A stretch of 64,000 nt of DNA from an uncultured Planctomycetia bacterium (GTDB lineage: Bacteria; Planctomycetota; Planctomycetia; Pirellulales; Thermoguttaceae), in NCBI GenBank assembly GCA_963779975.1, contig CAWAAL010000024.1, forward strand, positions 57,153 to 121,152, in the 5' to 3' direction. Shown one piece after another: positions 7,101 through 61,400 of the stretch (the first letter of the stretch is position 1; the number at the start of each line of letters is the position of its first letter). The notes under the pieces were generated by a model. It saw only the letters and a program-made list of their open reading frames with translations, was not told the DNA's origin and did not search any database. A program made the position numbers and the translations under genes.

Positions 7101-7272
7101 CACGCAACGGATCGCCAAGGACGGCCGGATCGTGGAGGTGCGGCTGTCTGCCACTGCCTTGATGAACGAAATCGGAAAAGTGTATGCCATCGCGACCACG
7201 GAGCGGGAGATACGCGGGCAAGATGAGGATAGGGCCTCTATGGTCACGAGAAGGAAGCCTGGCCATGACTAA
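4114..7272 (+). CDS. CheB methylesterase - CheR methyltransferase - coiled coil - PAS sensory protein, 3 frameshifts in this sequence
   Basis: Track ORFs 4114..4608, 4313..5323, 5211..6134 and 6208..7272 read as one protein. Motifs: GIGASAGGLAAFEAFF, LPIDFFFRSLA, VWVPGCSTGEEAFSIAILI, NEEL-repeat coiled coil, two PAS. Frame changes lie near 4575-4590, 5149-5152 and 6116-6121. Confidence 0.8.
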
Positions 7273-8995: not shown

Positions 8996-9046
8996 CGCCC
9001 ACGAATCGGGTAGAATGGCCTGCGATTCACAACAGGGTTCAAACCG

Positions 9047-9088
9047 TCCGACGTGGCCGAAGGCCTTGGAGTGTTCCGTCACGTCGGC
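9047..9088 (+). repeat. terminator-arm-only copy of the repeated module hairpin, no U-tract
   Basis: CCGACGTGGCCGAAGGCCTTGGAGTGTTCCGTCACGTCGG is ~85% identical to the module terminator hairpin but is followed by CGGGATT. It ends 26 nt before the REC-DUF2294 start codon. Confidence 0.55.
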
Positions 9089-9113
9089 GGGATTGGCGAA
9101 AGAGAGAAAACTT

Positions 9114-9974
9114 ATGCCAGGGACAGGGAAAGTTCTTCGGGTTCTCGTGGTCGATGACGACCGAGACGGTGCGGACACGCTTGGCCTGCTCGTTGAAGAA
9201 CTCGGCAACCAGGTACATGTGACCTATGGCGGGACGTCGGCACTCGACGTTGCGACCGTATTTCGGCCCGACCTGATGTTGATCGACCTGGCAATGCCTG
9301 ACATGGATGGATGTCATCTCGTTGGGCAATTTCGCCAGATTCCGGCCTTCGCGAAGACGCGAATCGTGGCGGTCACCGGCCATGCCAACGAGGGACATAG
9401 AACCTTGGCCATGAAGGCCGGGTTCGATAAGGTCCTCTTCAAGCCTGTTGCTCTGAAAGAAATCAAAGCGGTCTTAGCCAGTGTCGTTCAGGGGGGCGCA
9501 CTTGCGGGCCCATCGCCGCAACCGGCCAAGAAGCATGCGAGTTCCCAAGCAGAACGACGTTTGCCGATTAACGAAGCGCGTAGAATCAGGAAGGATCGCA
9601 AATCAGGAATCCTCACTCAAGCAGAAAGCGAAGCAGCCGTCTGCGAGGGGATCATTCGCTTTCAAGAGGACTATTTGGGAGGGGGGGCGGAGCAGATCCG
9701 CGTACACTTCATCAAAGACCTCCTCGTGATCCGCATTCTGGGTGCTTTGACGGTGGCCGAGCGGCAACTGGTCAAGTCCTTTTCGCCGGAGAAAGGGAGG
9801 GATCTCATCAAGCAGACACGGGAACAACTGCTGGAGTTGGCACGCCCGATGTTGGAATCGATGGTCCATGAGGTCGTGGGCGTGAAGGTGTTGAGCATGC
9901 ACCACGACATCAGTACTGTGACCGGGGAAGAAGTGGTCCTCTTCAGCTTGACCGAGGCACCTCGCTTTTCCTAA
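9114..9974 (+). CDS. response regulator: receiver domain fused to DUF2294 (MpsC-like) domain
   Basis: ATG 9114. REC (LVVDDDRDGADTL...MLIDLAMPDMDG...FKP), a linker, then a full DUF2294 pattern (ESEAAVCEGIIRFQEDYLGGG...LSMHHDISTVTGEEVVLFSL). Confidence 0.8.
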   Translation: MPGTGKVLRVLVVDDDRDGADTLGLLVEELGNQVHVTYGGTSALDVATVFRPDLMLIDLAMPDMDGCHLVGQFRQIPAFAKTRIVAVTGHANEGHRTLAMKAGFDKVLFKPVALKEIKAVLASVVQGGALAGPSPQPAKKHASSQAERRLPINEARRIRKDRKSGILTQAESEAAVCEGIIRFQEDYLGGGAEQIRVHFIKDLLVIRILGALTVAERQLVKSFSPEKGRDLIKQTREQLLELARPMLESMVHEVVGVKVLSMHHDISTVTGEEVVLFSLTEAPRFS

Positions 9975-10248
9975 GGTCGGCAAGCCGCCAGGGCAAAAGC
10001 CGCCAGGGCAAAAGTCGCCACAGACGCCGATCCCCGACACTTGGGAACTACTGTAGAGACCAAGGAGATTCCTCGTGGTCGGGGCAAATTGCATGCAGGA
10101 CATCCTGTTCCACCGCATCGTGACCATTAGGGCGTTTGGGTGGCGAGTCCTCTCTTGGGCTGTTTTCGAGAGCCAGGGCGACACATTCCTCTCCTTGGCT
10201 CCAAGGAGACGCGTTCTTTGAAGCGACGACTTCGCGAGAATAACTCTC

Positions 10249-10396
10249 TTGCCTTTGCCTCATAGCGGCATACAATGATGGCAGAGTCGCGATACACTCG
10301 ATCGCGACTCTGCAACAAGAATGTCGGATGACTAGATAGAGAGCAACCCGGCCGTACGGGGAGGCTCGTTAGTGAGTAAGCCGACGTGGTCGAATA
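10249..10396 (+). ncRNA. GTCGGATGACTAG-box RNA module, copy 1 (3'-truncated)
   Basis: -35 TTGCCT 10249-10254, 16 nt, -10 TACAAT 10271-10276. 13-bp P1 hairpin 10281-10313; box 10323-10335. The terminator 5' arm breaks at 10396 into an antisense gene relic. Confidence 0.7.
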
Positions 10397-10819
10397 GTCG
10401 TACAGCTCGCGCAGTTGCGTTTCCGGCAGTTCGACGGGCGCCAAATACGGGAAGAGCATCATGTGCTCCCAAGGCATCCAGACCAGTGGAAACGACGGAC
10501 GGATTGGCGCACGAGTGAAGGCGAACGGGTTGACGCCGGACAAGGCAATCGTGGACTCGGCCGTGAGTATGAGTTCCGTGTAGGGTTGGCTGATCTCGAA
10601 TCGACTGGCCGAATTGCCAAAGACATCTTCGAATTCCATGATCGGGACGGCGGGAACAATCTGCAAGCGATAGTTCAAGACGCTCTGATGGACGTCATTG
10701 ATCGGCCGCAGGTGGACGCAATGCTTGCTGTGCTGAACGGGCTGATTGTAACCAAACCGGGTCGTGTGCTTGACAGTCAAGCGACGGCTGCCAATCGTGG
10801 ACGGGACGGGCATGGTCAT
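10397..10819 (-). pseudogene. transglutaminase N-terminal-domain (Bact_transglu_N-like) protein, 3'-truncated by module copy 1
   Basis: RLTVKHTTRFGYNQPVQHSKHCVHLRPIND...FEDVFGNSASRFEI fits the family. Similarity ends at ...LRELYDY, after which the ORF translates the module antisense. Confidence 0.6.
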
Positions 10820-10836
10820 GATGAGGGTCTGAACGG

Positions 10837-11241
10837 CTACTTCTTCTTAACGTCGCGGAGCATCGGCGACTCGGCCAGGGTGAAGAGAACGACCTCCTCG
10901 CCGGTGACGGTGCTAATGTCGTGGTGCATGCTCCGCACCTTGATGCCGGTGATCTCCTGGACCAGCGTTTCCAAGATCGGACGGGCCGTTTCGATCAGAT
11001 GCGTCCGCACTTGCTTGAGCAGGTCGCGCCCCTTCTCGGCAGAGAGCGACTTGACGAGTTGCTGCTCGGCGGCGGTCAAAACGCCTTGCAGGCGGACCAC
11101 GAGCAGATCGCCGAGCAGGTGCGCGTGAATATCCTTGGGTCCCCGGCCCATATAGTCCTGCTCGAAGCGTGTCACTGCTTCGCAGACGGCGGATTCGATC
11201 TCTCCGTGGGTTCTCATGGCAATTTCTCGCTGGGTTCTCAA
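10837..11241 (-). CDS. DUF2294 (MpsC-like) family protein, stand-alone
   Basis: IESAVCEAVTRFEQDYMGRGPKDIHAHLLGDLLVVRLQGVLTAAEQQLVKS...MHHDISTVTGEEVVLFTLAESPMLRDVKKK. Divergent from module copy 2. Confidence 0.8.
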   Translation of the reverse strand: MRTQREIAMRTHGEIESAVCEAVTRFEQDYMGRGPKDIHAHLLGDLLVVRLQGVLTAAEQQLVKSLSAEKGRDLLKQVRTHLIETARPILETLVQEITGIKVRSMHHDISTVTGEEVVLFTLAESPMLRDVKKK

Positions 11242-12248: not shown

Positions 12249-12585
12249 GATGGTGACTCCTTTCCTATAAAGCCCGGAATGGAGAATGCAACAGGTAGGG
12301 CCAATGCAGCGAATTTCGGACGTAAGTGCTTCAAAGTGAAGTGGTTCCGCCGATGGCTGCGGTCATTCTCTGTGCCTCGCTGGGGAACAAACTGTTTCCA
12401 GCCAAGATGAAACAGGCCCAGCAATTCGGTCCATGCCGTCTCGTTGGATGGCAGCGGCACGAAGGGCAGCGTAGCCGACAGGCAAGGCTTCCCTTTCATG
12501 AACAAATGCCCTATTGGTTGTATTTAATTACAGCAGCCAAAGCAGGGGCCCACAAGGGTCCGGCGCCAGGAAAGGACCTGAACGG

Positions 12586-12672
12586 CTACTTCTTCTTTAC
12601 GTCGCGGAGAATGAGCGACTCGGCGCGGGTGAAGAGAACGACCTCCTCGCCGGTGACGGTGCTGATGTCGTT
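12586..12672 (-). pseudogene. DUF2294 gene relic (last 28 codons + stop)
   Basis: The reverse strand reads NDISTVTGEEVVLFTRAESLILRDVKKK-stop. It lies 22 nt left of the copy 3 promoter. Confidence 0.7.
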
Positions 12673-12694
12673 TGAAAGAAAGCCAAAAGCTCTA

Positions 12695-13075: not shown

Positions 13076-14764
13076 ATGACCGTACGTCACATTTGCCCAT
13101 GGTGCAGAGTCGCCGCACTGGCAACCCTGGGCGCAATAGTTGGCTTGCACAAGGCTACCGCCGTACCGCCGGGCCCGACGGATGCCGCGGATGGGATACA
13201 AGTGCTCACGCGCGGGCCGGTGCATGAGGCCTTCGCGGAAACGGTGACCTTCGATCCGCAACCGGGCATCGTGGCGCCGAAAGCGCCGCCGGCCGCCATC
13301 GAAGAACTTCCGCCGGACCAGAAACCGGAGGGGGCCAACATCGCCTGGATCCCCGGCTACTGGGCCTGGGACGACGAACGAAGCGACTTCCTTTGGGTCA
13401 GCGGCATCTGGCGCGACCTTCCGCCGAGCCGCCAATGGGTGCCCGGTTATTGGGACCAGTCCGGGCAAGGCTACCAATGGACTTCCGGGTACTGGGCGGA
13501 TGCCCAGGCGAGTAACGTGCAATATTTGCCCGAACCGCCTGTGACCGCCGAAGCCGGTCCCAACATTCCGTCGCCTTCGCCGGACGACACTTGGCTGCCG
13601 GGAAGTTGGCTGTGGCAGCAAAACCGCTATGCTTGGCGTCCCGGTCTCTGGGCCACCGCACATCCGGATTGGGAGTGGGTTCCCGCCCATTACCTATGGG
13701 CTCATCGCGGCTATGTTTTTGTCGACGGCTACTGGGATTACTCCATCGGCCGCCGCGGCGTACTGTTTGCGCCAGTGTATTTCAGTGCGGGCATGTATAC
13801 GCAGCCCCGTTTCTCCTATTCGCCCGCGACGGTGATCGATCTGGATGTTTTCACCAACTGTCTGTTCTTGAGGCCGCAATATCAACACTACTATTTCGGC
13901 GACTACTACGCCGACAATTATCAAGCAGCGGGGTTCTACCCGTCGTATTCGTACAACTCCGGCCGCCATGGCTACGATCCGATTTTCACCCACGAGCGCT
14001 GGCAGCATCGCCAGGACGGACAGTGGGAGCGTCGCATTGCGGCCGACTTCCAGAACCGCCGCGATCACGCGGATGCCCGACCGCCGCGGACGTTGGCGGC
14101 GCAAACAGCATTCAGGGCCGGCGAGGCGACGTCCGGAAAGAGGAGTCCCGTGCTGGCCGTGCCGTTCTCCCAATTCACGAAGAGTCAGAATAGTCCGCTG
14201 CGATTCCAGCCGGTCGATTCGTTGGAGCGACAAAAGCTGGTTCAGCACGTGCAAGCGGTGCAACGATTCCGCGAGCAGCGGCAGAAACTGGAGAACCAAG
14301 CAGCGGCGCCCTCAGCCGCCTCAGCGGCGAGACAATTCGCGCCGGCCAACGGGAGACTTCCCACCTCTCCGATCGCGACGAGGTCAAACACGGAACTCGG
14401 CAAGGATCACGTTCCACCCCAGATGCATGTAGCTCCCAAGCCGGATCTCACGGTCGAGGCCAAGCCGAGAGCGACTCCATCGCTGGAGAAACCGCAGCAA
14501 CGCACCGTGAACCGGCTGCCGCTCGATACGCCGAAACCTGAACCCCGGGCCGAACGGCCGGCACCGAAAGCGGAACCCCGGGTCGAACGGCCGGCACCGA
14601 AAGCGGAACCCCCGGTCGAACGGCCGGCACCGAAACCTGAACCCCAGGTCGAACGCCCAGCGCCGAAACCTGAACCCCAGGTCGAACGCCCAGCGCCGAA
14701 ACCGCCGGCAGAGCGACCGGCAGCGGGACCGAACCGAAATGGACAAAAGGAAAAGGGTAAATAG
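13076..14764 (+). CDS. secreted YXWGXW-repeat protein with Pro/Lys/Glu-rich repeat tail
   Basis: ATG 13076 with a signal-like N-terminus. Repeated GYWxW/WxPGxW aromatics (WIPGYWAWDD, WVPGYWDQSG, WTSGYWAD, WLPGSWLWQ). The tail is (PKxEPxVERPA)n. Confidence 0.6.
   Translation: MTVRHICPWCRVAALATLGAIVGLHKATAVPPGPTDAADGIQVLTRGPVHEAFAETVTFDPQPGIVAPKAPPAAIEELPPDQKPEGANIAWIPGYWAWDDERSDFLWVSGIWRDLPPSRQWVPGYWDQSGQGYQWTSGYWADAQASNVQYLPEPPVTAEAGPNIPSPSPDDTWLPGSWLWQQNRYAWRPGLWATAHPDWEWVPAHYLWAHRGYVFVDGYWDYSIGRRGVLFAPVYFSAGMYTQPRFSYSPATVIDLDVFTNCLFLRPQYQHYYFGDYYADNYQAAGFYPSYSYNSGRHGYDPIFTHERWQHRQDGQWERRIAADFQNRRDHADARPPRTLAAQTAFRAGEATSGKRSPVLAVPFSQFTKSQNSPLRFQPVDSLERQKLVQHVQAVQRFREQRQKLENQAAAPSAASAARQFAPANGRLPTSPIATRSNTELGKDHVPPQMHVAPKPDLTVEAKPRATPSLEKPQQRTVNRLPLDTPKPEPRAERPAPKAEPRVERPAPKAEPPVERPAPKPEPQVERPAPKPEPQVERPAPKPPAERPAAGPNRNGQKEKGK
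14531..14722 (+). repeat. 33-bp tandem repeat x ~5.8 (codes PKAEPRVERPA units)
   Basis: Units at 14531, 14564, 14597, 14630 and 14663, plus a partial unit at 14696, read directly from the sequence. Confidence 0.85.
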
Positions 14765-17801: not shown

Positions 17802-17918
17802 TTCCTTGCCGGCGCAACCATCTTGGACGGCAGAGCCTTGGCGATAAATGGCGCGGTAACACTCGATGACAACACGATCACCGCGCCAAGTTCGGTTCCA
17901 GAACCCGTATCCCTAAGC
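17802..17918 (+). pseudogene. relic of a DUF3494 (ice-binding-like) protein C-terminus with start of a PEP-CTERM motif
   Basis: FLAGATILDGRALAINGAVTLDDNTITAPSSVPEPVSLS parallels ATILNGRALAQTGAVTMDTNTIS of the 18149 gene. It is cut at the -35 of module copy 4 and has no 5' part. Confidence 0.55.
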
Positions 17919-17922
17919 CCCA

Positions 17923-18105
17923 TTGCCTTTGCCCTTTGGCGGCGTAAAATGTGAGTGTTGGAAGAGTCGCATGGCAGATCGCGCTGCTCCAACGTAATTG
18001 TCGGATGACTAGAAAGAGGGCAACCCGGCCCTGCCGGGGGGCTCGTTAGCGAGTAAGCCGACGTGGTCGAATACCTCCGGGTGTTCCGCCACGTCGGCTT
18101 TTTTC
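17923..18105 (+). ncRNA. GTCGGATGACTAG-box RNA module, copy 4
   Basis: TTGCCT 17923-17928, 16 nt, TAAAAT 17945-17950. Box 18000-18012; T6 18099-18104. 44 nt to ATG 18149. Confidence 0.75.
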
Positions 18106-18148
18106 GTGCTTGGTTGCGCATCACAGTCACTTCACACGGAGACCCACG

Positions 18149-22296: not shown

Positions 22297-22455
22297 TTCG
22301 ATCGGACCCGCGCAATTGGAAATTGCAACAAACTGCGACACGTCGGCACAAACAGCATAACCGTCAAACTTTGCCAACTCGCGGGTGCAAGGTCGCCAAC
22401 AAGCAGCCAAAGCAGGGCCCGACAAGGGTTCGGCGCCACGAAAGGACCTGAACGG

Positions 22456-22543
22456 CTACTACTTCTTTACGTCGCGGAGAATGGGCGACTCGGCGCGGGT
22501 GAAGAAGAACGACCTCCTCGCCGGTGACGGTGCTGATGTCATT
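22456..22543 (-). pseudogene. DUF2294 gene relic (frameshifted 3' end)
   Basis: The reverse strand reads NDISTVTGEEVVL, then is out of frame through one extra T relative to relic 12586-12672. It lies 22 nt left of the copy 5 promoter. Confidence 0.65.
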
Positions 22544-22565
22544 TGAAAGAAGGCCAATAGCCCTA

Positions 22566-22748
22566 TTGCCTTTACCCTTTGGCGGCGTACAATGTGACTG
22601 TTGGAAGAGTCGCATCGCAGATCGTGCTGCTCCAACGAAGTTGTCGGATGACTAGAAAGAGGGCAACCCGGCCCTGCCGGGGGGCTCGTTGACGAGTAAG
22701 CCGACGTGGTCGAATACCTCCGGGTGTTCCGCCACGTCGGCTTTTTTC
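22566..22748 (+). ncRNA. GTCGGATGACTAG-box RNA module, copy 5
   Basis: TTGCCT 22566-22571, 16 nt, TACAAT 22588-22593. Box 22643-22655; T6 22742-22747. 30 nt to ATG 22778. Confidence 0.75.
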
Positions 22749-22777
22749 ATTTTCTGCCAGGTTCGGAGTACCCTCCC

Positions 22778-23791
22778 ATGTCGATCTTACCACACTTTCA
22801 CCAACCCCTGCAGACCGCGACAAAACAGCAGATTTTCCAGCAACATCGCCATGGCGACTCGGCGGAGTCGCTGGCCCGGCGTTTTTGTCGGTCCTGCACC
22901 CGCATTTACGGCATCATCAAGGAGATCCGGGCCGCACGGATCATGGAACTGCCGCTGGACTCCATGGGCAACGAGCAGTTTGCCCGCCTGTGCTCGGAGA
23001 AGAAGGAACGCGAGATATTACAGCCACCGCCGGAAGGCGATCTGGCGGCGAAGAAGTCGCGCGTGCCCGCCGGCATGCCCGCGTATCTGGCCAACCTGTA
23101 CGACGTGCCCCTGCTGACGCACGAGGAGGAGGTCCATCTCTTTCGGAAGATGAACTATCTCAAGTTCAAGGCGAGCGGGCTCCGCGACGCCCTCGACGTG
23201 AACCGGCCCAAGAGTTGCCTGATGGACCAGATCGAGGATCTGTACGACGAATCGGTCGCAGTCCAGAATCAGATCATCCGCGCCAACCTGAGGTTGGTGG
23301 TCGGGATTGCCAAGCGGTACGTCGGTCCGGCGGAAGACTTCTTCGAACTGGTCAGCGACGGGAACATGTCGTTGATCCGCGCCGTGCAGAAGTTCGATGT
23401 TTCGCGGGGCAACAGGTTCAGTACGTACGCAACTTGGGCGATCATGAAGAATTTCGCCCGCACGATCTCCGACGTGCTCCGTCAGCGGGGCCGTTTTTGC
23501 ACGAACCACGCGGAAACGTTCGGCGGCGCCGAGGATGACCGCACGGACCAGTACGAGCAGGCGTCGGCCCAAATCCAGCGGGAATCGCAAGTCGAGGGGA
23601 TCCTCGAGCGACTCGACGAGCGGGAGCGGCAGATTGTCACGAGCCGTTTCGGCCTGGCGCGCGGCCAGGAACCGCTGACCTTGAAGCAGGTCGGGGCTGC
23701 GATCGGCGTAACCAAAGAGCGGGTCCGTCAGATCCAGTGCCGGGCGATGAGCAAATTGAGAACGGCTGCCGAGGAGGACGGAATCGAGTGA
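22778..23791 (+). CDS. alternative sigma-70 family factor (regions 2-4, long N-terminal extension)
   Basis: ATG 22778. [72 protein letters not shown]...TLKQVGAAIGVTKERVRQIQ. Confidence 0.8.
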   Translation: MSILPHFHQPLQTATKQQIFQQHRHGDSAESLARRFCRSCTRIYGIIKEIRAARIMELPLDSMGNEQFARLCSEKKEREILQPPPEGDLAAKKSRVPAGMPAYLANLYDVPLLTHEEEVHLFRKMNYLKFKASGLRDALDVNRPKSCLMDQIEDLYDESVAVQNQIIRANLRLVVGIAKRYVGPAEDFFELVSDGNMSLIRAVQKFDVSRGNRFSTYATWAIMKNFARTISDVLRQRGRFCTNHAETFGGAEDDRTDQYEQASAQIQRESQVEGILERLDERERQIVTSRFGLARGQEPLTLKQVGAAIGVTKERVRQIQCRAMSKLRTAAEEDGIE

Positions 23792-23811
23792 TTCCAAGGG
23801 AAAGGGACAAC

Positions 23812-30237: not shown

Positions 30238-30247
30238 GTCAGCCCCG

Positions 30248-30349
30248 CTATTTCTTCTTCGCGTCGCGGAGCATCGGCGACTCGGCCAGGGTGAAAAGAA
30301 CGACCTCCTCGCCAGTGAGGGTGCTTATGTCATGGCGCATGCTCAACGC
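30248..30349 (-). pseudogene. DUF2294 gene relic (last 33 codons + stop)
   Basis: The reverse strand reads LSMRHDISTLTGEEVVLFTLAESPMLRDAKKK-stop. It lies 47 nt left of the copy 6 promoter. Confidence 0.7.
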
Positions 30350-34619: not shown

Positions 34620-34654
34620 CGTGCCCGATTTCGGGAAAGAACAGGAGGATAGTC

Positions 34655-37153
34655 ATGTTGAAACCAAATGCAGATAAGCCGGGATCGAAGGACGATCTAA
34701 AATCCCTGCCGCTGGCGGAGGTGGAGAAACGATTGGGCTCGTCGCCGGACGGCCTCAGTCAAGCCGAGGCGCAGAAACGGCTGACCCAATATGGGCCTAA
34801 CGAGATTGAAGAAAAGAAGACCAATCCGCTCCTGAAATTCCTCGCCTATTTTTGGGGTCCCATCCCGTGGATGATCGAAGTGGCGGTGATTCTGTCGGGT
34901 GCGGTCCAGCACTGGCCGGATTTCTTCATCATCCTCCTCTTGCTGGTGACCAACGCCGTGGTCGGATTCTGGGAAGAACACCAGGCGGGCAACGCCATCG
35001 CCGCCCTGAAGGCCAAGCTGGCGATCAAGGCGAGGGTGAAACGTGATGGGAAGTGGGTCAACCCGGCGGCGCGTGAGTTGGTGCCGGGCGACGTCATCCG
35101 CATGCGCCTGGGCGACATCGTGCCGGCCGATGCACGGCTGTTGGACGGCGACCCGGTGGAGGTGGATCAATCCGCGCTGACGGGAGAGTCGTTGCCCGCC
35201 GAGCGCAAACCGGGCGAGGCGGTGTTTTCCGGTTCGATCATTCGTCAGGGTGAAATCGGCGCACTGGTCTACGCCACGGGGGCAAACACCTACTTCGGCA
35301 AGACGGCGCAACTGGTGCAGGAGGCACACACCGTCAGCCATTTTCAAAAGGCGGTCTTGAAGATCGGCGATTACCTGATCATCCTCGCGGCGGCTCTGGT
35401 GGCAGTGATCGTCGTGGTTGCGCTGTTCCGCGGCGATCCGATGCTTTACGCAGAGCCCGGCCGGGAGCCCGTACTGTTGTTTGCGCTGGTCCTCACGGTG
35501 GCCGCGATTCCCGTGGCAATGCCCACGGTGTTGTCGGTGACGATGGCGGTCGGCGCCCGCCTGCTCGCCAGGAAAAAGGCGATCGTGAGCAAGCTGGTGG
35601 CCATCGAGGAACTGGCGGGCGTGGACGTGCTGTGCGCGGACAAGACCGGCACCCTGACCCAGAACAAGCTGACGCTGGGCGATCCGTTCAGCGTACACAA
35701 CGTCGCCGCCGATCAAGTGATCCTGGATGGCGCGCTGGCGTCGCGTGCGGATAATAACGACACCATCGATCTGGCCGTCCTGGGCGGACTGAAAGACAAG
35801 GATTCGTTAAAGGCTTATGAGGTGCTTCATTTCCAGCCGTTCGACCCGGTGCATAAACGCACCGAGGCCACCGTCAAAGCCAAAGACGGAAAGACGTTCA
35901 AGGTGACGAAGGGTGCGCCGCAGGTGATTTTGGCGTTGTCGGCCAATGCCGGGCAGGTGAAGCCCGCCGTCGAGAAAGCCGTCAATGAATTTGCGGCGCG
36001 CGGCTTCCGTTCGTTGGGCGTGGCGCGGGCCGAGGGCGACGGGCCATGGCAGTTTGTCGGCGTGTTGCCCTTGTTCGATCCCCCGCGGGAAGATGCCAAG
36101 GCAACCATCGCGACCGCGCTGGCCATGGGCGTAAAGGTCAAGATGGTTACGGGGGACGCGCTGGCCATCGCCAAGGAAACCGCCAAGAAGCTGGACATGG
36201 GCACGAATATCCTCGATGCCGGCGGCCTGGGCGACACGAAGCATCACGAGACGGCGCAGTCGGCGGAGGCAATTGAAAAAGCGGACGGCTTCGCCCAGGT
36301 GTTCCCCGAACACAAGTTCCACATCGTGGACGTCCTGCAGCAACGCGGCCACATCGTCGGCATGACGGGCGACGGGGTGAACGATGCCCCCGCGCTGAAG
36401 AAGGCCGACTGCGGCATCGCCGTTTCCGACGCGACGGACGCGGCCCGCGCGGCGGCGGCCATCGTGCTGCTGACGCCGGGCCTATCGGTGATTATCGACG
36501 CCATCAAGGAGAGCCGGAAGATCTTCCAGCGGATGAACAGCTACGCGATCTACCGCATCGCCGAGACGCTGCGCGTGCTGTTCTTCATGACGCTGGCGAT
36601 CCTGGTGTTCAACTTCTATCCGTTGACGGCGGTGATGATCGTGATGCTGGCGTTGCTCAACGACGGGGCGATCCTCTCCATTGCCTATGACAACGTTCAT
36701 TACAAGGACAAGCCCGAGGCCTGGAACATGCACATGGTGCTGGGGGTCGCCACGGTGCTGGGCCTGATCGGGGTCGTCTCCGCGTTCCTTCTGTTTTATC
36801 TTGGCGAGCGTGTCTTCGGCCTCGACCGCGCGCACATCCAGACGCTGATGTACTTGAAGCTCTCCGTGGCGGGACATCTGACGATCTTCCTGACGCGGAC
36901 GCGCGGCCCGTTCTGGTCGATCCGCCCCGCGCGAATTCTATGGGTGGCCGTGCTCGGCACGCAAATCGTGGCGACGTTGATCGCCGTTTATGGACTGTTC
37001 ATGACGCCCCTTGGCTGGGGTTGGGCGATGTTTGTTTGGGGTTATGCCCTGGCTTGGTTCCTCGTGAATGACCGCCTGAAATTGCTCGCGTATCGGATTT
37101 TCGATCCAACTACCTTGCCCCTATTGGCCAAGAAACACTGCCATGCCGGATGA
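34655..37153 (+). CDS. P3A-type (plasma-membrane H+-ATPase-like) P-type ATPase
   Basis: ATG 34655 follows RBS AGGAGGA. LSQAEAQKRLTQYGPNEIEEKKTNPLLKFLAYFWGPIPWMIE, LTGESLP, CADKTGTLTQNKL, MTGDGVNDAPALKKADCGIAV. Confidence 0.85.
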   Translation: MLKPNADKPGSKDDLKSLPLAEVEKRLGSSPDGLSQAEAQKRLTQYGPNEIEEKKTNPLLKFLAYFWGPIPWMIEVAVILSGAVQHWPDFFIILLLLVTNAVVGFWEEHQAGNAIAALKAKLAIKARVKRDGKWVNPAARELVPGDVIRMRLGDIVPADARLLDGDPVEVDQSALTGESLPAERKPGEAVFSGSIIRQGEIGALVYATGANTYFGKTAQLVQEAHTVSHFQKAVLKIGDYLIILAAALVAVIVVVALFRGDPMLYAEPGREPVLLFALVLTVAAIPVAMPTVLSVTMAVGARLLARKKAIVSKLVAIEELAGVDVLCADKTGTLTQNKLTLGDPFSVHNVAADQVILDGALASRADNNDTIDLAVLGGLKDKDSLKAYEVLHFQPFDPVHKRTEATVKAKDGKTFKVTKGAPQVILALSANAGQVKPAVEKAVNEFAARGFRSLGVARAEGDGPWQFVGVLPLFDPPREDAKATIATALAMGVKVKMVTGDALAIAKETAKKLDMGTNILDAGGLGDTKHHETAQSAEAIEKADGFAQVFPEHKFHIVDVLQQRGHIVGMTGDGVNDAPALKKADCGIAVSDATDAARAAAAIVLLTPGLSVIIDAIKESRKIFQRMNSYAIYRIAETLRVLFFMTLAILVFNFYPLTAVMIVMLALLNDGAILSIAYDNVHYKDKPEAWNMHMVLGVATVLGLIGVVSAFLLFYLGERVFGLDRAHIQTLMYLKLSVAGHLTIFLTRTRGPFWSIRPARILWVAVLGTQIVATLIAVYGLFMTPLGWGWAMFVWGYALAWFLVNDRLKLLAYRIFDPTTLPLLAKKHCHAG

Positions 37154-38045
37154 AGTCACGTTTGATCATGAAGCAGGCGTCTTGCGGGTCTTGCAGACCA
37201 AGAGCGAGACGAAGGCATTCTACGACAAGATCGCCATGGTCTATGATCTCTTGGCGGAGCATTCCGAGCGGCCCGTGCGTGAAACCGGGCTGCGGCTGCT
37301 CGCTGCTGCCCCAGGTGAGCGCGTTCTGGAAATCGGCTTCGGGACCGGCCATATCTTGGCCGAACTTGCCCGTGCCGTCGGGCCGACGGGAAAGGTCTTC
37401 GGCATCGACATCTCGGAGAACATGTTGGACCACGCAAGAGGCGTTCTGAGCAACAAGGGCCTCATTGACCGCGTTTCCCTTGATTGCGGCGATGCCCAAA
37501 GCCTCCCCTACGGTGACGACTCGCTGGACGGGATATTCATGTGCTTCACCCTGGAACTGTTCGACACGCCGGACATTCCCAAGGTGCTGGCAGAGTGCAA
37601 GCGGGTCCTGCGGCCGCGCGGGCGCATCGTCGTCGTGGCCATTTCCAAGGAGTGTAAAGACGGCAAAGAAGGCAAGGACGGGTTCATCATTCACGCCTTC
37701 GAGTGGACACATCGCCACTTTCCCAATTTGATGGACTGCCGGCCGATCTATGTCCGCCGAGCGCTGGAGGCGGCGGGCTTTGCCATCGAGGACTCGCGGA
37801 CGGAATCTATGTGGATTCCCGTGGAGATTGTGCTGGGCAGGAGGGCCGTCTTCTTGCCTTTGCCCCGAAGCTGGACTCCATGGGCGACGAGCAAATTGCG
37901 AACGGCTGCCGAGGAGGACGGAATCGAGTGCTTTCCAGCGGTGGAGGCGAAGGACCACGAGTCGAGCAGCGAGGCCAGAACATGCCCCCACAGCCCCATG
38001 CCCATAAACATTTCACCGGCACGGCAACCGTCCGCGACATCGTGA
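37143..38045 (+). CDS. class I SAM-dependent methyltransferase; ORF tail reads through unrelated relic sequence
   Basis: VLEIGFGTGHILAELA (motif I), VFGIDISENML, GIFMCFTLELF, LRPRGRIVVV. Family-like sequence ends about 37850. Confidence 0.7.
   Translation: MPDEVTFDHEAGVLRVLQTKSETKAFYDKIAMVYDLLAEHSERPVRETGLRLLAAAPGERVLEIGFGTGHILAELARAVGPTGKVFGIDISENMLDHARGVLSNKGLIDRVSLDCGDAQSLPYGDDSLDGIFMCFTLELFDTPDIPKVLAECKRVLRPRGRIVVVAISKECKDGKEGKDGFIIHAFEWTHRHFPNLMDCRPIYVRRALEAAGFAIEDSRTESMWIPVEIVLGRRAVFLPLPRSWTPWATSKLRTAAEEDGIECFPAVEAKDHESSSEARTCPHSPMPINISPARQPSATS
37854..37930 (+). pseudogene. collapsed relic of a module + alternative-sigma paralog
   Basis: TTGCCTTTGCCC (module -35 region), then GCTGGACTCCATGGGCGACGAGCA (matches 22954-22977, 23/24) joined to AATTGCGAACGGCTGCCGAGGAGGACGGAATCGAGTG (matches 23754-23790, 36/37). 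Confidence 0.55.
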
Positions 38046-38308
38046 TCGGCATGTCCGATGGTTTGACCGTTCCCTTCGCCCTCGCAGCTGGGCTTTCGGG
38101 GGCCGTGGACGCGACGAGCATCGTGATTACGGCCGGGCCGGCCGAGGTTGCGGCTGGTTCGATTGCGATGGGCCTGGGCGGCTACTTGGCCGCAAGGACC
38201 GATTCCGAACATTACGTCACGGAGCGGGCTACCGAAAAAGAGGCAACGATCGAGATGCCGGAACCGGAGGCCGAAGAAGTGGCCTCAGTATTCCGGCACT
38301 TATCTTAG
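37982..38308 (+). pseudogene. VIT1/CCC1 family iron/manganese transporter, 3'-truncated before module copy 7
   Basis: ATG 37982. VRDIVIGMSDGLTVPFALAAGLSGA...AGSIAMGLGGYLAARTDSEHY...EPEAEEVASVF, then stop. The C-terminal TM half of the family is missing. Confidence 0.6.
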
Positions 38309-38336
38309 CGAAGATGCTTGGCTAAAACCACGAGTA

Positions 38337-38522
38337 TTGCCTTTTCCCTTCGGCGGCGTACAATTTCAGTGTTGGAAGAGTTGCGGGGCACTTGTTCGCG
38401 GCTCTCCAGTGAAATTGTCGGATGACTAGATAGAGGGCAACCTGGCTGTGCCGGGGGGCTAGTTGAAGAGTAAGCCGACGTGGTCGAACACCTTAGGGTA
38501 TTCCGCCACGTCGGCTTTTTTG
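38337..38522 (+). ncRNA. GTCGGATGACTAG-box RNA module, copy 7
   Basis: TTGCCT 38337-38342, 16 nt, TACAAT 38359-38364. Box 38417-38429; T6 38516-38521. 84 nt to ATG 38606. Confidence 0.75.
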
Positions 38523-38605
38523 TTTTCTGTGACGCCAAACGGTCGGAATCCAGCACGGAAGACTTCCAGGTTCAAAATCCTGGAGTTGAGCGGAGGTGAC
38601 GAACC

Positions 38606-39052
38606 ATGAGTCGAGATGCAATTGACAGAATGGAAATCCTCATGGTCGAGGATAACTTGCAGAATGCCAACGGCACGATACAGGCCCTCAAATGGGGCAA
38701 CGTGCAATGCCGAGTGAGCCTGGTCTGCGATGACGAGGAAGCGATCCGCTTTCTCTACCGTAAGGGTGAATTCGCCAAGGCGCCGACGCCCAACCTGATC
38801 CTGCTGGACATGCAGTTGCCCAAGGAGGAAGGTCAGCGCTTGCTTGCGGAAATCCGCGCCAACGAAGAACTCAAGGACATTCCCGTTGTGGTCCTCACCG
38901 GTTCACTGGATCACCGAGCGGGTCTTCACGTCCAAGAGATTCAGGTGGACGGCTTGATCACGCACCCCGTGGAGTTGGACAAGTTCATCGGTGTGGTCAA
39001 GTCGCGTCGCCGGTCTTGGTTGACCGACCTTGCGCTGTCCTCCATTGCCTGA
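38606..39052 (+). CDS. single-domain response regulator (receiver only)
   Basis: ILMVEDNLQNA, LILLDMQLPKEEG, PVVVLTGS, and K in DGLITHPVELDKF. Confidence 0.8.
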   Translation: MSRDAIDRMEILMVEDNLQNANGTIQALKWGNVQCRVSLVCDDEEAIRFLYRKGEFAKAPTPNLILLDMQLPKEEGQRLLAEIRANEELKDIPVVVLTGSLDHRAGLHVQEIQVDGLITHPVELDKFIGVVKSRRRSWLTDLALSSIA

Positions 39053-39099
39053 CGGACACGACCTGGAACACAACCGTTACGAAGACAATCATCCTTTTT

Positions 39100-39432
39100 T
39101 GCAGCACCGTTCTGGCCGTCGGCGAATTCGGCATGGGTTTCACAATCGGGGTGTTGAGAACCCTGGCTTTTGTCGTCATCGTGTTCGGCAATCAGGCGAC
39201 GACCTATGCCAACCGCGAATGCCGGCGACTCCGGTCCTCTCACCCCAGCTTCTGGCTGGCAATGTCATCGGTTGCCGATATCCTGATCGCCTCGATGTTG
39301 GCCATCGGGGGAATCTCCATGACTCTTTTGCCGGCTCTTGTCGTGGCCGGCACGCTTGCCGCGGCGGTGGTCTTCGCCTTGGTCGTGGATGCGGCCAAAG
39401 TGCCGGTATTCGGGCGACTCGGGATCGCGTGA
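39100..39432 (+). pseudogene. relic of a P-type ATPase C-terminus (last TM helices)
   Basis: LRTLAFVVIVFGNQATTYANRECRRLRSSHPSFWLAMSSVADILIASMLAIGG...VVDAAKVPVFGRL parallels the C-terminus of the 34655 ATPase (TIFLTRTRGPFWSIRPARILWVAVLGTQIVATLIAVYG). No start or upstream domains. Confidence 0.5.
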
Positions 39433-39441
39433 TCACTAATC

Positions 39442-39717
39442 CGCATCCTGGACGGCGTGGGGGCGGGAGTATTCGGCGTTGTCTCGGTCCTCGTGATCGC
39501 CGACCTCACGCGGGGCTCGGGCCGCTTTAATCTCACGCTCGGGGCCATCAGCACGGCGGTCGGCATTGGTGCTTCGCTCAGCCAGGTCATTGCCGGCTCC
39601 ATCGTGCATCACTTTGGCTCCAACGTCGGCTTTCTCTTCCTTGCCGCGGTCGCGTCGGCCGCATTGGGCATCCTTTACTTCTTCATGCCGGAGACACACA
39701 ATAAAGGGTTTGCCTGA
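39442..39717 (+). pseudogene. relic of an MFS transporter C-terminus
   Basis: ILDGVGAGVFGVVSVLVIADLTRGSGRFNLTLGAISTAVGIGASLSQVIAGSIVHHFG...LGILYFFMPET. Only the last ~3 TM helices are present. Confidence 0.5.
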
Positions 39718-40134: not shown

Positions 40135-40200
40135 ATTTTCTCTTTACGTCGCGGAGAATTGGCGACTCGACCGGGAGACCTCCTCGCGGCTGACGGCGCC
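40135..40200 (-). pseudogene. strongly decayed DUF2294 3' relic
   Basis: TTCTCTTTACGTCGCGGAGAATTGGCGACTCGACC...CCTCCTCGC aligns with the other relics (CTTCTTTACGTCGCGGAGAATGAGCGACTCGGC...CCTCCTCGCC). Confidence 0.4.
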
Positions 40201-40257
40201 GAACACCACGGCCCATGCCTCAACAGCTTGATACTGTGGGAAAAAGCAATGGGCCTA

Positions 40258-45007: not shown

Positions 45008-46570
45008 CTAGTTGTCCACGTCCTTCCGGAGGGGCAATTGGACCACGATCCGGGTTCCCTTGCCCAAGCTGCTCGTGATGGTCGCGGATCCCCCAAACAA
45101 CTTTGCGCGTTTCTGAATTCCTTCCAAGCCAAAGTGGCCGTCGCCGACTTCACGGGGATTGAAGCCGATGCCCCAGTCTTGGACCTCAATCAGAACGTGC
45201 CGGTTCCGCCGGGTCAACCTGACGAGCACGCGCTCGCTCTGGCTGTAGCGGCGGGCGTTGGCAAGGCCCTCTTGCAGGATCCGATAAATGGTATTTTCCG
45301 ACGCGGGCTCCCACCGCTCGCCGTCGAGGTTATGGACGAACTCGATCTCTGGTTTGCCCGGAGCGCTGCCTTGGGAGATAAGGTCCTCGATGGCAGCCAC
45401 CACGCCGCATTCGTCCATGAGCGGTGAACGCAGTCCACGGATCAACCGGCGTGCTTCCCGCATACAGTCGTCAAGCGCTCTTAGTCCAGTCTCGAAACTC
45501 GTCCAGACCTCGCCGTCTCCCTCTCCTTTGAACCGGCTGAACGCCGCAAAGTGCGTGATCGCGGCGGCGAGTTGCTGGACGAATCCGTCGTGGATTTCGC
45601 AGGAAACCACTTGTCGATCCCGGTCCTGCAATTCCAGCAAGTGGCGGAGATACTGCTGCTCCTTGAGCGACTGTTCCTCTGTCTGCCGACGCTCCTTGAT
45701 CTCCGGCCTCGACGGTTCGGCGGCTTGATCGCGGCCAAGCCCGGCGGCGTGCCCAGGGACGGGATCGGTATCCAGGCCCAGGAACTGCGGACCTTGCGAC
45801 GCCCACTCGGTCGGGTCCAAGGGCCCCGTGACCCTAGTAAGACCGAGATCCAGCGTGCGGAGTTGTCTCAACCCCTTGAGGTGCTCCATGCCGGCGTCGC
45901 TGACCTCGGTGCCGCGGAGGCCCAGCGACTGGAGTTGCCTCAATCCCTTGACGTGTTCCAGGCCGGCGTCCGTGACCTTGGTGCCGCCGAGGTCGAGTTC
46001 TCGAAGTCGGGGCAGACCCCTGAGGTGCTTCAGATCGGCGCCGGTAGCCCAGAAGCACAATTCTTCGAGTTCGGGCAGACCGCGGAGGTGCTGCAAACCG
46101 GCATCGGTGACTTCGGTGCCGCCGAGCCCCAGTTCTTGGAGTTGCCGCAACGCCTGGAGGCGCTTCAGACCGGCGTCGGTGACCTTGGCGCCGCTGAGGT
46201 CCAGCGTCTGGAGTTGGGGCAGATCCTCAAGGTGCTCCAGGCCGGCGTCGCTGACCTCGGCGCCGCCGAGGTCCAGCGTCTGGAGTTGGAACAGACCCTT
46301 GAGGTGTTCCAGACCGGCGTCGCTGACCTTGGTGCCGCCGAGGTCCAGCGTTTGGAGTTGCGTCAGCCCCTTCAGGTGTTCCAAACCGGCGTCGCCGACT
46401 TCCGTGTGGGAGAGATACAACTCTCGGAGCAGGGGCAAGTCCTTGAGGCACTCCAAGGCGTCGTCGTCGAGCAGGCACCAGGAGAGGTCAACGGATATCG
46501 CAACGTCGCCTCGCAACAACTGGATCTTGGCAATCGCCTCTGCGCAATCCGGGTAATCTGGCTTCATCAT
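45008..46570 (-). CDS. cytoplasmic leucine-rich-repeat domain fused to HisKA_3/HATPase_c histidine kinase
   Basis: About 9 repeats of TxVSDAGLEHLKGLxQLQTLDLGG (24 aa), a coiled coil, then SCEIHDGFVQQLAAA (H-box, NarX/DegS type) and LEGIQKRAKLFGGSATITS. Confidence 0.75.
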   Translation of the reverse strand: MMKPDYPDCAEAIAKIQLLRGDVAISVDLSWCLLDDDALECLKDLPLLRELYLSHTEVGDAGLEHLKGLTQLQTLDLGGTKVSDAGLEHLKGLFQLQTLDLGGAEVSDAGLEHLEDLPQLQTLDLSGAKVTDAGLKRLQALRQLQELGLGGTEVTDAGLQHLRGLPELEELCFWATGADLKHLRGLPRLRELDLGGTKVTDAGLEHVKGLRQLQSLGLRGTEVSDAGMEHLKGLRQLRTLDLGLTRVTGPLDPTEWASQGPQFLGLDTDPVPGHAAGLGRDQAAEPSRPEIKERRQTEEQSLKEQQYLRHLLELQDRDRQVVSCEIHDGFVQQLAAAITHFAAFSRFKGEGDGEVWTSFETGLRALDDCMREARRLIRGLRSPLMDECGVVAAIEDLISQGSAPGKPEIEFVHNLDGERWEPASENTIYRILQEGLANARRYSQSERVLVRLTRRNRHVLIEVQDWGIGFNPREVGDGHFGLEGIQKRAKLFGGSATITSSLGKGTRIVVQLPLRKDVDN

Positions 46571-46899: not shown

Positions 46900-47115
46900 A
46901 TGAGAAGGCTGATGTTCGTGGTCGTTTTGCTCGTGATCGGCATCGCCGGCTTCGGGTATTACCGCGGTTGGTTCGCTTTCACGGTGGACAAAGACAAGTT
47001 CCACCAAGATGAACAAACAACCAGGGAAAGGGTGCAAGGCGCCGGGCAAGAGGCCAAGGAAAAGGTCGACAATCTGACTGGCGGCAAGGTCAAAGAACCC
47101 CAGCGCCAACCCTGA
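46900..47115 (+). CDS. small N-terminally anchored membrane protein
   Basis: MRRLMFVVVLLVIGIAGFGYYRGWF, then a charged tail (KDKFHQDEQTTRERVQGAGQEAKEKVDNL). RBS GAGGA. Confidence 0.5.
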   Translation: MRRLMFVVVLLVIGIAGFGYYRGWFAFTVDKDKFHQDEQTTRERVQGAGQEAKEKVDNLTGGKVKEPQRQP

Positions 47116-47200
47116 GACTTTACACTTTGTGGATGCTAATCACGGACCATGTTGGCATTTCGCCAACTTGGGCACACTATACGTGAAGGAGAATTTGATC

Positions 47201-47377
47201 ATGTTACGGCTTGCTATCGTGTTCCTCGTCATCGCCCTGATCGCCGGGTTCCTCGGCTTTGCAGGAGTGGCACAATTATCCTGGGACGGAGCGAAGATCC
47301 TCTTCGTTGTCTTCCTGATCCTCGCCGTGCTCTCTTTCGTGGGGCACGGTTTCCGGAGGCGACCCTACTGGGGGTAA
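47201..47377 (+). CDS. DUF1328 (UPF0391/YtjA-like) small membrane protein
   Basis: ATG 47201 follows RBS GAAGGAG. MLRLAIVFLVIALIAGFLGFAGVAQLSWDGAKILFVVFLILAVLSFV. Confidence 0.7.
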   Translation: MLRLAIVFLVIALIAGFLGFAGVAQLSWDGAKILFVVFLILAVLSFVGHGFRRRPYWG

Positions 47378-47384
47378 CGCATAG

Positions 47385-47571
47385 TTGCCTTTTTCCCCTT
47401 GCGGCGTATAATGATGGTGCTGGCAGAACCGCGACGCACTTCATCGCGACTCTGGCAGTGAAATTGTCGGATGACTAGATAGAGAGCAACCCGGCCGTGC
47501 CGGGGGGCTCGTTAGCGAGTAAGCCGACGTGGTCGAATACCTGCGGGTGTTCCGTCACGTCGGCTTTTTTG
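47385..47571 (+). ncRNA. GTCGGATGACTAG-box RNA module, copy 10
   Basis: TTGCCT 47385-47390 (8 nt after the DUF1328 stop), 16 nt, TATAAT 47407-47412. Box 47466-47478; T6 47565-47570. 29 nt to ATG 47600. Confidence 0.75.
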
Positions 47572-47599
47572 TTTTCTTACCCGAAAGGAAGGTGCCACA

Positions 47600-48010
47600 A
47601 TGTCGGAAAACCGCATCAAGATCGCTCCCGAGACAGTAGCGTATGCTGACTCGGAGACGCGCAAGCTCGTGGTGGAATTCGCCATCCCGGGAGCGCCCAC
47701 GGATTCCATCGACGTGAAGATCCTGGGAGACAGCATCCACCTGACGGCGCCCGCAAGGGACATCGAGTATGTTTCGGCCCTGGCTTTAGCCTGGCCGGTG
47801 AAACCGGACAAAGCCGAAGCGATCTACGAGCACGGACTGCTCCGCATCGAGGTGCCCTTCAAAGATCCGATGGAGGATGCCGTGAAGGTTGCCATCAAGA
47901 CAGCCGGTACCGAAACCAAGCCCGCAGTAATCGCGACTCCAGCGGTTCCGCCGGCGGTTGGACGCGGCAGTAGCAAGCCGCTGGCCGTCGAACCGGCCTT
48001 AACGGTCTGA
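47600..48010 (+). CDS. Hsp20/alpha-crystallin family small heat-shock protein
   Basis: KLVVEFAIPGAPTDSIDVKILGDSIHLTA...AIYEHGLLRIEVPFK. Confidence 0.7.
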   Translation: MSENRIKIAPETVAYADSETRKLVVEFAIPGAPTDSIDVKILGDSIHLTAPARDIEYVSALALAWPVKPDKAEAIYEHGLLRIEVPFKDPMEDAVKVAIKTAGTETKPAVIATPAVPPAVGRGSSKPLAVEPALTV

Positions 48011-61295: not shown

Positions 61296-61316
61296 CGCTT
61301 TCGCCCTCTACGGCAT

Positions 61317-61400
61317 TTCCCCGTCAGGAAGCAATACTTCCCCGTCAGGAAGCAATGTTTCCCTATCAGGAAGCAATGTTTCCCTATCAGGAAGCAATCG
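61317..61400. repeat. 21-bp tandem repeat x4 upstream of guaC
   Basis: TTCCCCGTCAGGAAGCAATAC / TTCCCCGTCAGGAAGCAATGT / TTCCCTATCAGGAAGCAATGT / TTCCCTATCAGGAAGCAATCG. Each unit carries TTCC-N6-GGAA. Confidence 0.85.

Follow-up and report, generated by a model that had tools for sequence, protein, structure and literature searches.

A 113-nt relic behind a methyltransferase gene, probably the remnant of a sigma factor–response regulator operon copy, in a module-rich island of a Thermoguttaceae bacterium

Bacterial genomes contain several kinds of small remnants with which a composite piece of non-coding DNA can be compared. Correia, REP/BIME and ERIC-type elements are promoter-bearing dispersed repeats that mark rearrangement points, and they serve here only as a lead. 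Pseudogene relics also arise from the decay of a duplicated or translocated operon copy, for example in reduced or rearranging genomes, and the deletions that make up the classical lacI deletion spectra are comparable short-repeat events. Among deletions in bacteria, those that are independent of RecA and arise between direct repeats of <200 bp spaced by no more than a few kb form a prominent class; template switching in post-replication gaps, or else slippage, has been given as their cause (PMC7145654). Here, we analysed a stretch of 64,000 nucleotides (the window) from an uncultured Planctomycetia bacterium of the Thermoguttaceae (contig CAWAAL010000024.1 of assembly GCA_963779975.1, positions 57,153 to 121,152), in which a relic of 113 nt (window positions 37854-37966) lies 3' of the core of a methyltransferase (MT) gene. 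The relic joins a piece of a repeated promoter module, two pieces of a sigma-70-family gene and the start of a response regulator (RR) gene. We consider it probable that the whole is the in-situ pseudogene remnant of a sigma-RR operon copy that stood behind the MT module and was collapsed by short-homology deletions.

The relic resembles the remnants of RecA-independent short-repeat deletions (PMC7145654) in having repeats at both endpoints and one hybrid repeat at the joint, in endpoints that lie <1 kb apart and out of frame, and in its later point decay. It differs from them in its imperfect repeats, identical at 10 of 12 positions, in the mosaic nature of the surviving copy and in the presence of three joints in 113 nt, which therefore point to several events. 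As with decayed duplicate operons, the intact sigma and RR genes stand apart, while the scrap keeps their linkage in the form of a stop, a spacer and an RR start; unlike them, it lies inside an extended upstream open reading frame (ORF) and in an island of promoter-leader modules. These modules recall the Correia, REP/BIME and ERIC-type elements, since an element of ~195 nt is present in at least 11 copies in 64 kb and several gene-order differences between relatives coincide with modules. However, no terminal inverted repeats or target duplications flank the relic, the full copies in the window all lie on the + strand directly upstream of genes, and the modules specify a structured RNA with its own terminator.

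Composition and extent of the relic

An earlier note, made by reading the DNA alone, had described three joined pieces downstream of the MT core, and all three are present where it placed them. The first, TTGCCTTTGCCCCGAAGC, is the 5' end of a module and closes on a GC that it has in common with the sigma piece that follows; recognized correctly as a module -35 region, it is 18 nt long (37854-37871) and not 12. The second (37870-37893) corresponds to sigma codons 59-66 and, as had been proposed, matches 22954-22977 in the intact sigma gene, at 23 of 24 positions and with an E of 1e-5 within the window; when extended to 37899, its identity to sigma is 27/30. The third (37882-37930) matches 23742-23790 at 47 of 49 positions (E 2.9e-18) and, when followed through 37933/23793, at 49 of 52 (E about 1e-18). 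The sigma pieces keep the order and strand that they have in the intact gene, and the reverse search, with the sigma locus against the whole window, returned matches at the two relic places only.

The last codons of sigma are thus kept, as the earlier note had it, but its stop is not: directly after the sigma-derived GAATCGAGTG, TGA has become TGC (37929-37931). The extent of the remnant also had to be revised. It begins at 37854 as proposed, but instead of ending at 37930 it continues for a further 36 nt to 37966. This additional DNA contains a 24-mer (37943-37966, GGAGGCGAAGGACCACGAGTCGAG) that matches the start of the intact RR gene (38592-38615, GGAGGTGACGAACCATGAGTCGAG) at 20 of 24 positions, covering the Shine-Dalgarno sequence, the start codon and the first codons of that gene. 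No other place on either strand of the window matches it at 19 or more of 24 positions, and none of 5000 shuffles, tested against the RR start region, reached 20/24. A repeat finder independently returned the same pair, 24 nt long and 649 nt apart. Within it, the RR start codon of the relic is mutated from ATG to ACG (37957-37959), and 640 nt separate the end of the relic from the intact RR gene downstream.

The arrangement of these parts is that of an operon present in the related locus L167. There, the sigma TGA is followed by exactly 25 nt, with GGAGG, and then by the RR gene, which begins ATG AATCGAG; the relic reads TGC, 25 nt with GGAGG, and ACG AGTCGAG. The L167 sigma is 76% identical to that of the window, and the RR encoded directly 3' of it is 69% identical to the window RR (E 4e-77). 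An orthologue of the window RR was present only in L167 among 168 loci searched with it, which included 80 sigma loci, and the closest RR homologue is P0247, with 92% identity; the sigma homologues P0124, P0125, P0132 and P0139 have 76-81% identity. Since the relic carries the former sigma stop, the 25-nt spacer and the RR start as in L167, its parent is taken to be a sigma-RR operon. The intact sigma gene of the window is followed by an unrelated 127-aa ORF, and only ~12 nt past its stop are common with the relic. Two possible extensions of the relic were rejected: RR homology past 37966 (to about 37979) is ambiguous with respect to the sequence that precedes the VIT gene of L087 and is not claimed, and a further sigma remnant between module B, the module ahead of the intact RR gene, and the RR start (CGGAATC, about 38545) shows too weak a resemblance and has the wrong spacing.

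The promoter piece has a different origin from the sigma pieces. Its TTGCCTTTGCCC, at 37854-37865, has eight matches in the window when up to one mismatch is allowed, compared with 0.36 expected, and none of 100 shuffles reached eight. Five of these eight sites (10249, 17923, 22566, 37854 and 38337) are -35 positions of mapped modules. Homology between the window and the metagenome relatives L004 and L005 runs from the MT gene to 37871 (cTCTTGCCTTTGCCCCAAAGCGGCGTACAATGA), and in both of them a full module continues from there, while in L001 and L003, which have no MT-adjacent module, homology to the window stops at 37840. The DNA of L004 and L005 passes straight from MT into a complete module (...ggccgtcctcTTGCCTTTGCCCCAAAGCGGCGTACAATGAtgg), their MT proteins end in ...LGRKAVLLPLPQSGVQ and ...LGRKAVLLPLSQSGVQ, and their MT stop is a TGA beside the -10 box, in the module -10 region (TACAATGA). 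A third relative, L169, likewise has the order MT-module-YflT. The sigma gene's own module reads TTGCCTTTACCCTTTGGC and differs from the relic piece at 5 of 18 nt. Because of the continuity in L004 and L005 and of these five differences, the piece is assigned to the resident MT-adjacent module and not to a copy of sigma's module. What had been read as a collapsed module-plus-sigma paralog is, therefore, a non-coding remnant of a sigma copy, but its promoter piece belongs to the resident MT module and its parent was a sigma-RR unit.

The coding capacity of the relic is gone: sigma codons 1-58 and 67-321 are absent, only 59-66 and 322-337 remain, and sigma regions 2 and 4 are not encoded. In the intact protein, the Pfam domains occupy residues 167-239 and 276-328, and its best NCBIfam models are of the RpoS/RpoD type, with scores under their cut-offs. 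At the -10 position, the relic reads TCCATG, whereas functional modules have TTGCCT, 16-17 nt and TACAAT. The promoter scan, which detected the promoter of module B, returned no promoter-like site in the relic or on its minus strand. An nhmmer search retrieved no module at 37854-37990, where the leader core (UGUCGGAUGACUAGA) and the terminator hairpin with its U-run are missing. Lacking a -10 box, leader, terminator and start codon, the relic is predicted to be inert as a gene or promoter. Its effects are passive only: the module promoter and the MT stop are lost, MT is extended by 63 codons, and downstream DNA can be transcribed only by read-through.

Joints, stepwise collapse and origin of the copy

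The central joint carries the motif GGGCRAYGAGCA, which occurs at exactly three sites in the 64 kb on both strands (22966, 23742 and 37882), compared with 0.12 expected. The first two are the direct repeats within the intact sigma gene (22966-22977 and 23742-23753); they are 10/12 identical and lie in different reading frames of sigma. Because an imperfect direct repeat is present at both intact sites and at the joint, a short-homology deletion is indicated. The earlier note had proposed the loss of about 770 bp between short repeats. The repeat is indeed found at both sites, and the distance between them puts the loss at 776 bp (23742-22966), a length not divisible by 3, but the copy at the joint is not a simple one. 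Taken with its 3' flank (GGGCGACGAGCAAATTGC), the joint repeat of the relic, GGGCGACGAGCA, combines bases of both parental sites into a mosaic, in which G5 and AA13-14 are like the 3' repeat and C7 and C18 are like the 5' repeat. The relic differs from the 3' sigma end at three positions, and at two of these it has the base found in register at the 5' site.

From this anatomy, the following course of events can be proposed. A sigma-RR copy would have come to lie directly behind the MT-adjacent module, plausibly placed there via recombination between modules, and it would then have collapsed stepwise, through at least three deletions, from roughly 1.26 kb to 113 nt. At the first joint (J1), the module spacer (...CCCCGAAGC, ...AAGC) would have been fused to sigma codon 59 (TGGACTCC) at a GC common to both sides; for a parent with the layout of the intact locus, the loss would amount to about 370 bp. 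At the second (J2), the deletion would have run from sigma codon 66 to codon 322 inside the 12-nt imperfect repeat, taking out the 776 bp and shifting the frame. At the third (J3), the RR gene would have been cut after its third codon and joined to DNA upstream of a truncated VIT gene. J3 lies between 37966 and about 37971, and from 37971 on there is homology to the upstream region of the full-length VIT gene in L087. As for the chemistry, the structure of the junctions makes it likely that template switching or slippage removed the DNA between short direct repeats independently of RecA.

Of the sequences compared, the window's own sigma is the best match for the sigma 3' piece (49/52), ahead of the nearest orthologues, those in L006 (44/47), L008 (44/49) and L166 (34/38), and the relic shares the window-specific GGACGGAATC with the window sigma. 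Being closest to the window's sigma, the copy therefore arose within this lineage. The sigma pieces have diverged at 4 of 76 positions and the RR-start piece at 4 of 24, which is not a significant difference (Fisher p = 0.09); dating separate events by the divergence of the pieces was, consequently, dropped. Both translation signals, the sigma stop and the RR start, are mutated, as expected under neutral decay. The relic may derive from the original operon or from a spare copy, and either sigma copy could be the earlier one.

Weighing the collapsed operon against its alternatives

An intact second sigma at orthologous loci, which the earlier note had suggested looking for, was found in none of L001-L005, L168, L169, 80 sigma loci and 80 VIT loci. 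Specifically, in L001-L005, L168 and the two sets of 80, neither the DNA 3' of the MT-module junction nor that upstream of VIT contains a sigma gene. Among the 80 sigma loci, taken from GTDB species genomes, none has MT, VIT or the 127-aa downstream ORF nearby, and none of the 80 metagenomic VIT-fragment loci has sigma upstream. A search with the relic in all fetched loci retrieved only sigma orthologues and the MT-module junction of L004, and no second relic. In L169, sigma is located 9.4 kb downstream of MT on the same strand; the MT-then-sigma order, therefore, exists.

Several observations weigh against the collapse in place of a sigma-RR operon copy. No examined relative has an intact sigma or sigma-RR unit between MT and VIT, and the adjacency of sigma and RR is known from one relative only, L167. 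The search within this genome covered 64 kb of a 175-kb contig, and a sigma-RR copy could lie elsewhere in the genome. The RR start is present twice, 649 nt apart, with the truncated VIT gene and module B between the two, for which the simple model has no explanation; an insertion with duplication, or two RR copies, would be ways to obtain this arrangement. Finally, to judge from the base-by-base comparison, the mosaic repeat is not what one crossover between today's copies would produce. It could reflect patchy heteroduplex repair across about 19 nt, over which the two sites have a similarity of 13/19, or drift and later substitutions.

The strongest alternative, which is nevertheless unlikely, is a one-step templated patch, in which a break or gap by the MT module was repaired via serial template switching that copied short stretches (24 nt, then about 85 nt) of a sigma-RR operon located elsewhere, and no full second sigma-RR copy was ever at this place. 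The failure to find an intact second copy here in any examined relative speaks for such a patch, the pieces are short, colinear and joined by microhomology (2 nt at J1, the 10/12 repeat at J2), and template switching in bacteria is documented (PMC7145654). However, the patch needs a sigma-spacer-RR template, which the intact sigma locus no longer has. It also makes a coincidence of the intact RR gene 640 nt away, which is expected under in-situ decay, and the divergence of 5% (sigma) to 17% (RR start) must have built up afterwards anyway.

A very improbable alternative is co-option of the fragment, either as a new C-terminal tail of MT that includes the last 13 sigma residues in frame or as an RNA that interferes with sigma expression. 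Because MT has lost a stop of the L004/L005 type, it reads 63 extra codons (37854-38045), which run through the relic into the VIT start. The sigma 3' piece lies in the MT frame, so that the extension reads the sigma tail (SKLRTAAEEDGIE), the sigma stop is lost, and the resulting 300-aa ORF is in the public record as a product (P0241). Still, a frame match has a prior chance of 1 in 3, and the in-frame sigma tail is there by chance. MT homologues are 225-253 aa long, with their ends only a few residues past VEIV.GRK; their C-termini are unconserved, and the tail is present in none of those aligned. As for an RNA, the fragment on the MT transcript has the same sense as the sigma mRNA and would therefore not pair with it, the minus strand has no promoter-like site, and the relic has no Rfam match.

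We give slightly less credence still to an assembly artefact, that is, a chimeric joint in a repeat-rich region. The island does hold at least 11 near-identical modules, and related contigs (ENA series ERZ250394xx-ERZ250395xx) have frameshifted genes that are possibly sequencing errors. Yet the errors that assemblers make are collapses or mis-joins at long repeats. Two colinear fragments of 24 nt and 50 nt that meet in a 12-nt imperfect repeat are not created in this way, and neither are point differences such as those from TGA to TGC and from ATG to ACG. Chance resemblance, in favour of which only the shortness of the 24-nt pieces can be cited, is negligible: the matches to sigma are better than chance (E 1e-5 and 3e-18 within the window), and they are adjacent and colinear, with the joint motif at three sites only and the RR start reached by 0/5000 shuffles. 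The relic does not have the features of a transposable element, a miniature inverted-repeat transposable element or an insertion sequence footprint, as there are no inverted repeats or target-site duplication flanking it and, among direct repeats, just the 24-nt RR-start pair stands out. Collapse of a sigma-RR operon copy in place thus remains the preferred account of the relic, whose parts are listed with the features around them in Table 1.

Table 1. Window coordinates of the relic parts, the intact genes related to them and the adjacent features
Feature	Position	Strand	Remarks
MT ORF (class I methyltransferase), 300 aa	37143..38045	+	Core to about 37853; Pfam Methyltransf_25/11/31 and UbiE matches
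Resident module remnant: -35 TTGCCT and 12 nt of spacer	37854..37871	+	18 nt; continuous with MT 3' end
Deletion joint (GGGCRAYGAGCA), a hybrid of the 12-nt imperfect direct repeats	37882..37893	+	3 occurrences only
Last 16 sigma codons and former stop (TGC at 37929-37931)	37882..37931	+	Identity to 23742-23793
Former sigma-RR spacer, 25 nt (GGAGG 37943-37947), dead RR start and 7 nt AGTCGAG	37932..37966	+	RR-start match
VIT1-family gene, truncated, about 107/231 codons	37982..38308	+	Covers 1-90 of the 214 positions of the Pfam VIT1 profile
Module B (promoter, structured leader, terminator hairpin), intact, before RR	38335..38528	+	nhmmer score 201; consensus fold
RR, intact, 148 aa	38606..39052	+	Pfam Response_reg; partner gene of sigma in relative L167
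Module ahead of intact sigma	22563..22756	+	nhmmer score 202
Sigma-70-family gene, 337 aa	22778..23791	+	Pfam Sigma70_r2 and Sigma70_r4; source-like copy; identical protein P0121

Repeated modules and gene order in the island

Almost all genes of the window are on the + strand, and many of them are preceded by the ~195-nt module. The module consists of a TTGCCT-N16/17-TACAAT promoter and a structured RNA of about 155 nt, in which a variable 5' hairpin with some covariation is followed by the invariant leader core and a long terminator hairpin with a U-run. Copies also occur in the relatives L001, L003, L004, L006-L008 and L166-L169. No Rfam family matched the module at the gathering threshold or at E up to 1, and it may be a leader or regulatory RNA that serves a stress-gene regulon. 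Full copies start at 10245, 12691, 17920, 22563, 30394, 38335, 40255, 46668 and 47383, and partial copies at 9048, 11421 and 48145. The modules before sigma (22559-22748) and before the 889-aa ORF at 18110 (17916-18105) are 95% identical, far above other pairs, which points to a recent duplication or gene conversion. Repeats of 100-150 nt are found just upstream of several modules (10783-10933, 12532-12682, 22402-22542, 30238-30344 and 40141-40202), and their minus strand encodes ...DISTVTGEEV..., which resembles the C-terminal part of MpsC-family ORFs in L087. In-frame tandem repeats occur at 6292-6480 (21 nt), 14498-14737 (33 nt), 45828-46466 (72 nt) and 61316-61398 (21 nt).

Fragmented genes surround the relic. 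Upstream, a P-type ATPase gene (34652-37153) precedes MT, and its stop overlaps the MT start; a HEAT-repeat gene (179 aa), located between ATPase and MT in L001, L002 and L169, is cleanly absent here (37136-37143). The close relative L002 has two P-type ATPase copies (471-2881 and 6912-9374), one of them broken by frameshifts, and an MT gene (10001-10909) with a frameshifted C-terminus; some of the L002 frameshifts could be sequencing errors. Downstream, the VIT relative in L087 is full-length, with 231 aa, and nucleotide homology to it ends near 38302, with module B directly after the truncated gene; the promoter of module B, TTGCCT-16-TACAAT, lies at 38337-38364. Past the RR gene, a second P-type ATPase gene is reduced to its C-terminal 113 codons (39097-39436, equivalent to L001 18519-18858), followed by a fragment of an MFS transporter gene (39457-39717) and an intact DMT_6 gene. 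In L168, MT is directly followed by the full version of the second ATPase gene. Compared with L169, L001 and L168, the segment from 37854 to about 39090 replaces the 3' part of the module, YflT, Band_7 and the N-terminal 2 kb of the second ATPase gene, and the YflT-Band_7 pair of the window is now at 30.6-32.6 kb, behind another module.

Around sigma, RR, DUF1328 and MT, the genes are arranged differently in the window, L167, L168 and L169; for example, L167 has DUF1328-sigma-RR, and L169 has DUF1328-module-sigma. A nucleotide alignment of window 46900-47578 with L169 showed homology through a 77-aa gene, DUF1328 and a module, and the genes downstream differ. This is the one junction that was aligned at the nucleotide level; elsewhere, the link to modules comes from gene order and module maps. 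In the stretch 46900-48010, synteny with L169 and L167 extends through that module, after which the window has a different gene, of 136 aa, where these relatives have sigma, which suggests the exchange of a unit at a module boundary. Repeated reshuffling has thus affected the island, and module boundaries are apparently where it took place.

For annotation, the relic means that the 300-aa MT of the public record has a spurious tail of 63 residues and that the adjacent VIT, second ATPase and MFS frames are pseudogene fragments. Short-homology deletion scars are common in bacterial genomes; the relic is ordinary in kind, and its value is local, in annotation and in the history of the island. It is the sole trace in the window of a sigma-RR linkage of the L167 type, and it speaks for a separation of sigma from its partner regulator in this lineage. 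Along with the differences in gene order among relatives, it supports the view of a stress-gene island rearranged at repeated modules, in which the relic would be one scar of gene-unit exchange at the ~195-nt repeats. More tentatively, and with considerable doubt, the modules might act as recombination handles that swap whole stress-gene units within islands of these planctomycetes and between them, the relic being the footprint of the event that broke the ancestral sigma-RR operon. If that were true, sigma and its partner regulator would have gained separate modules, and control of the island's own sigma factor would have been rewired.

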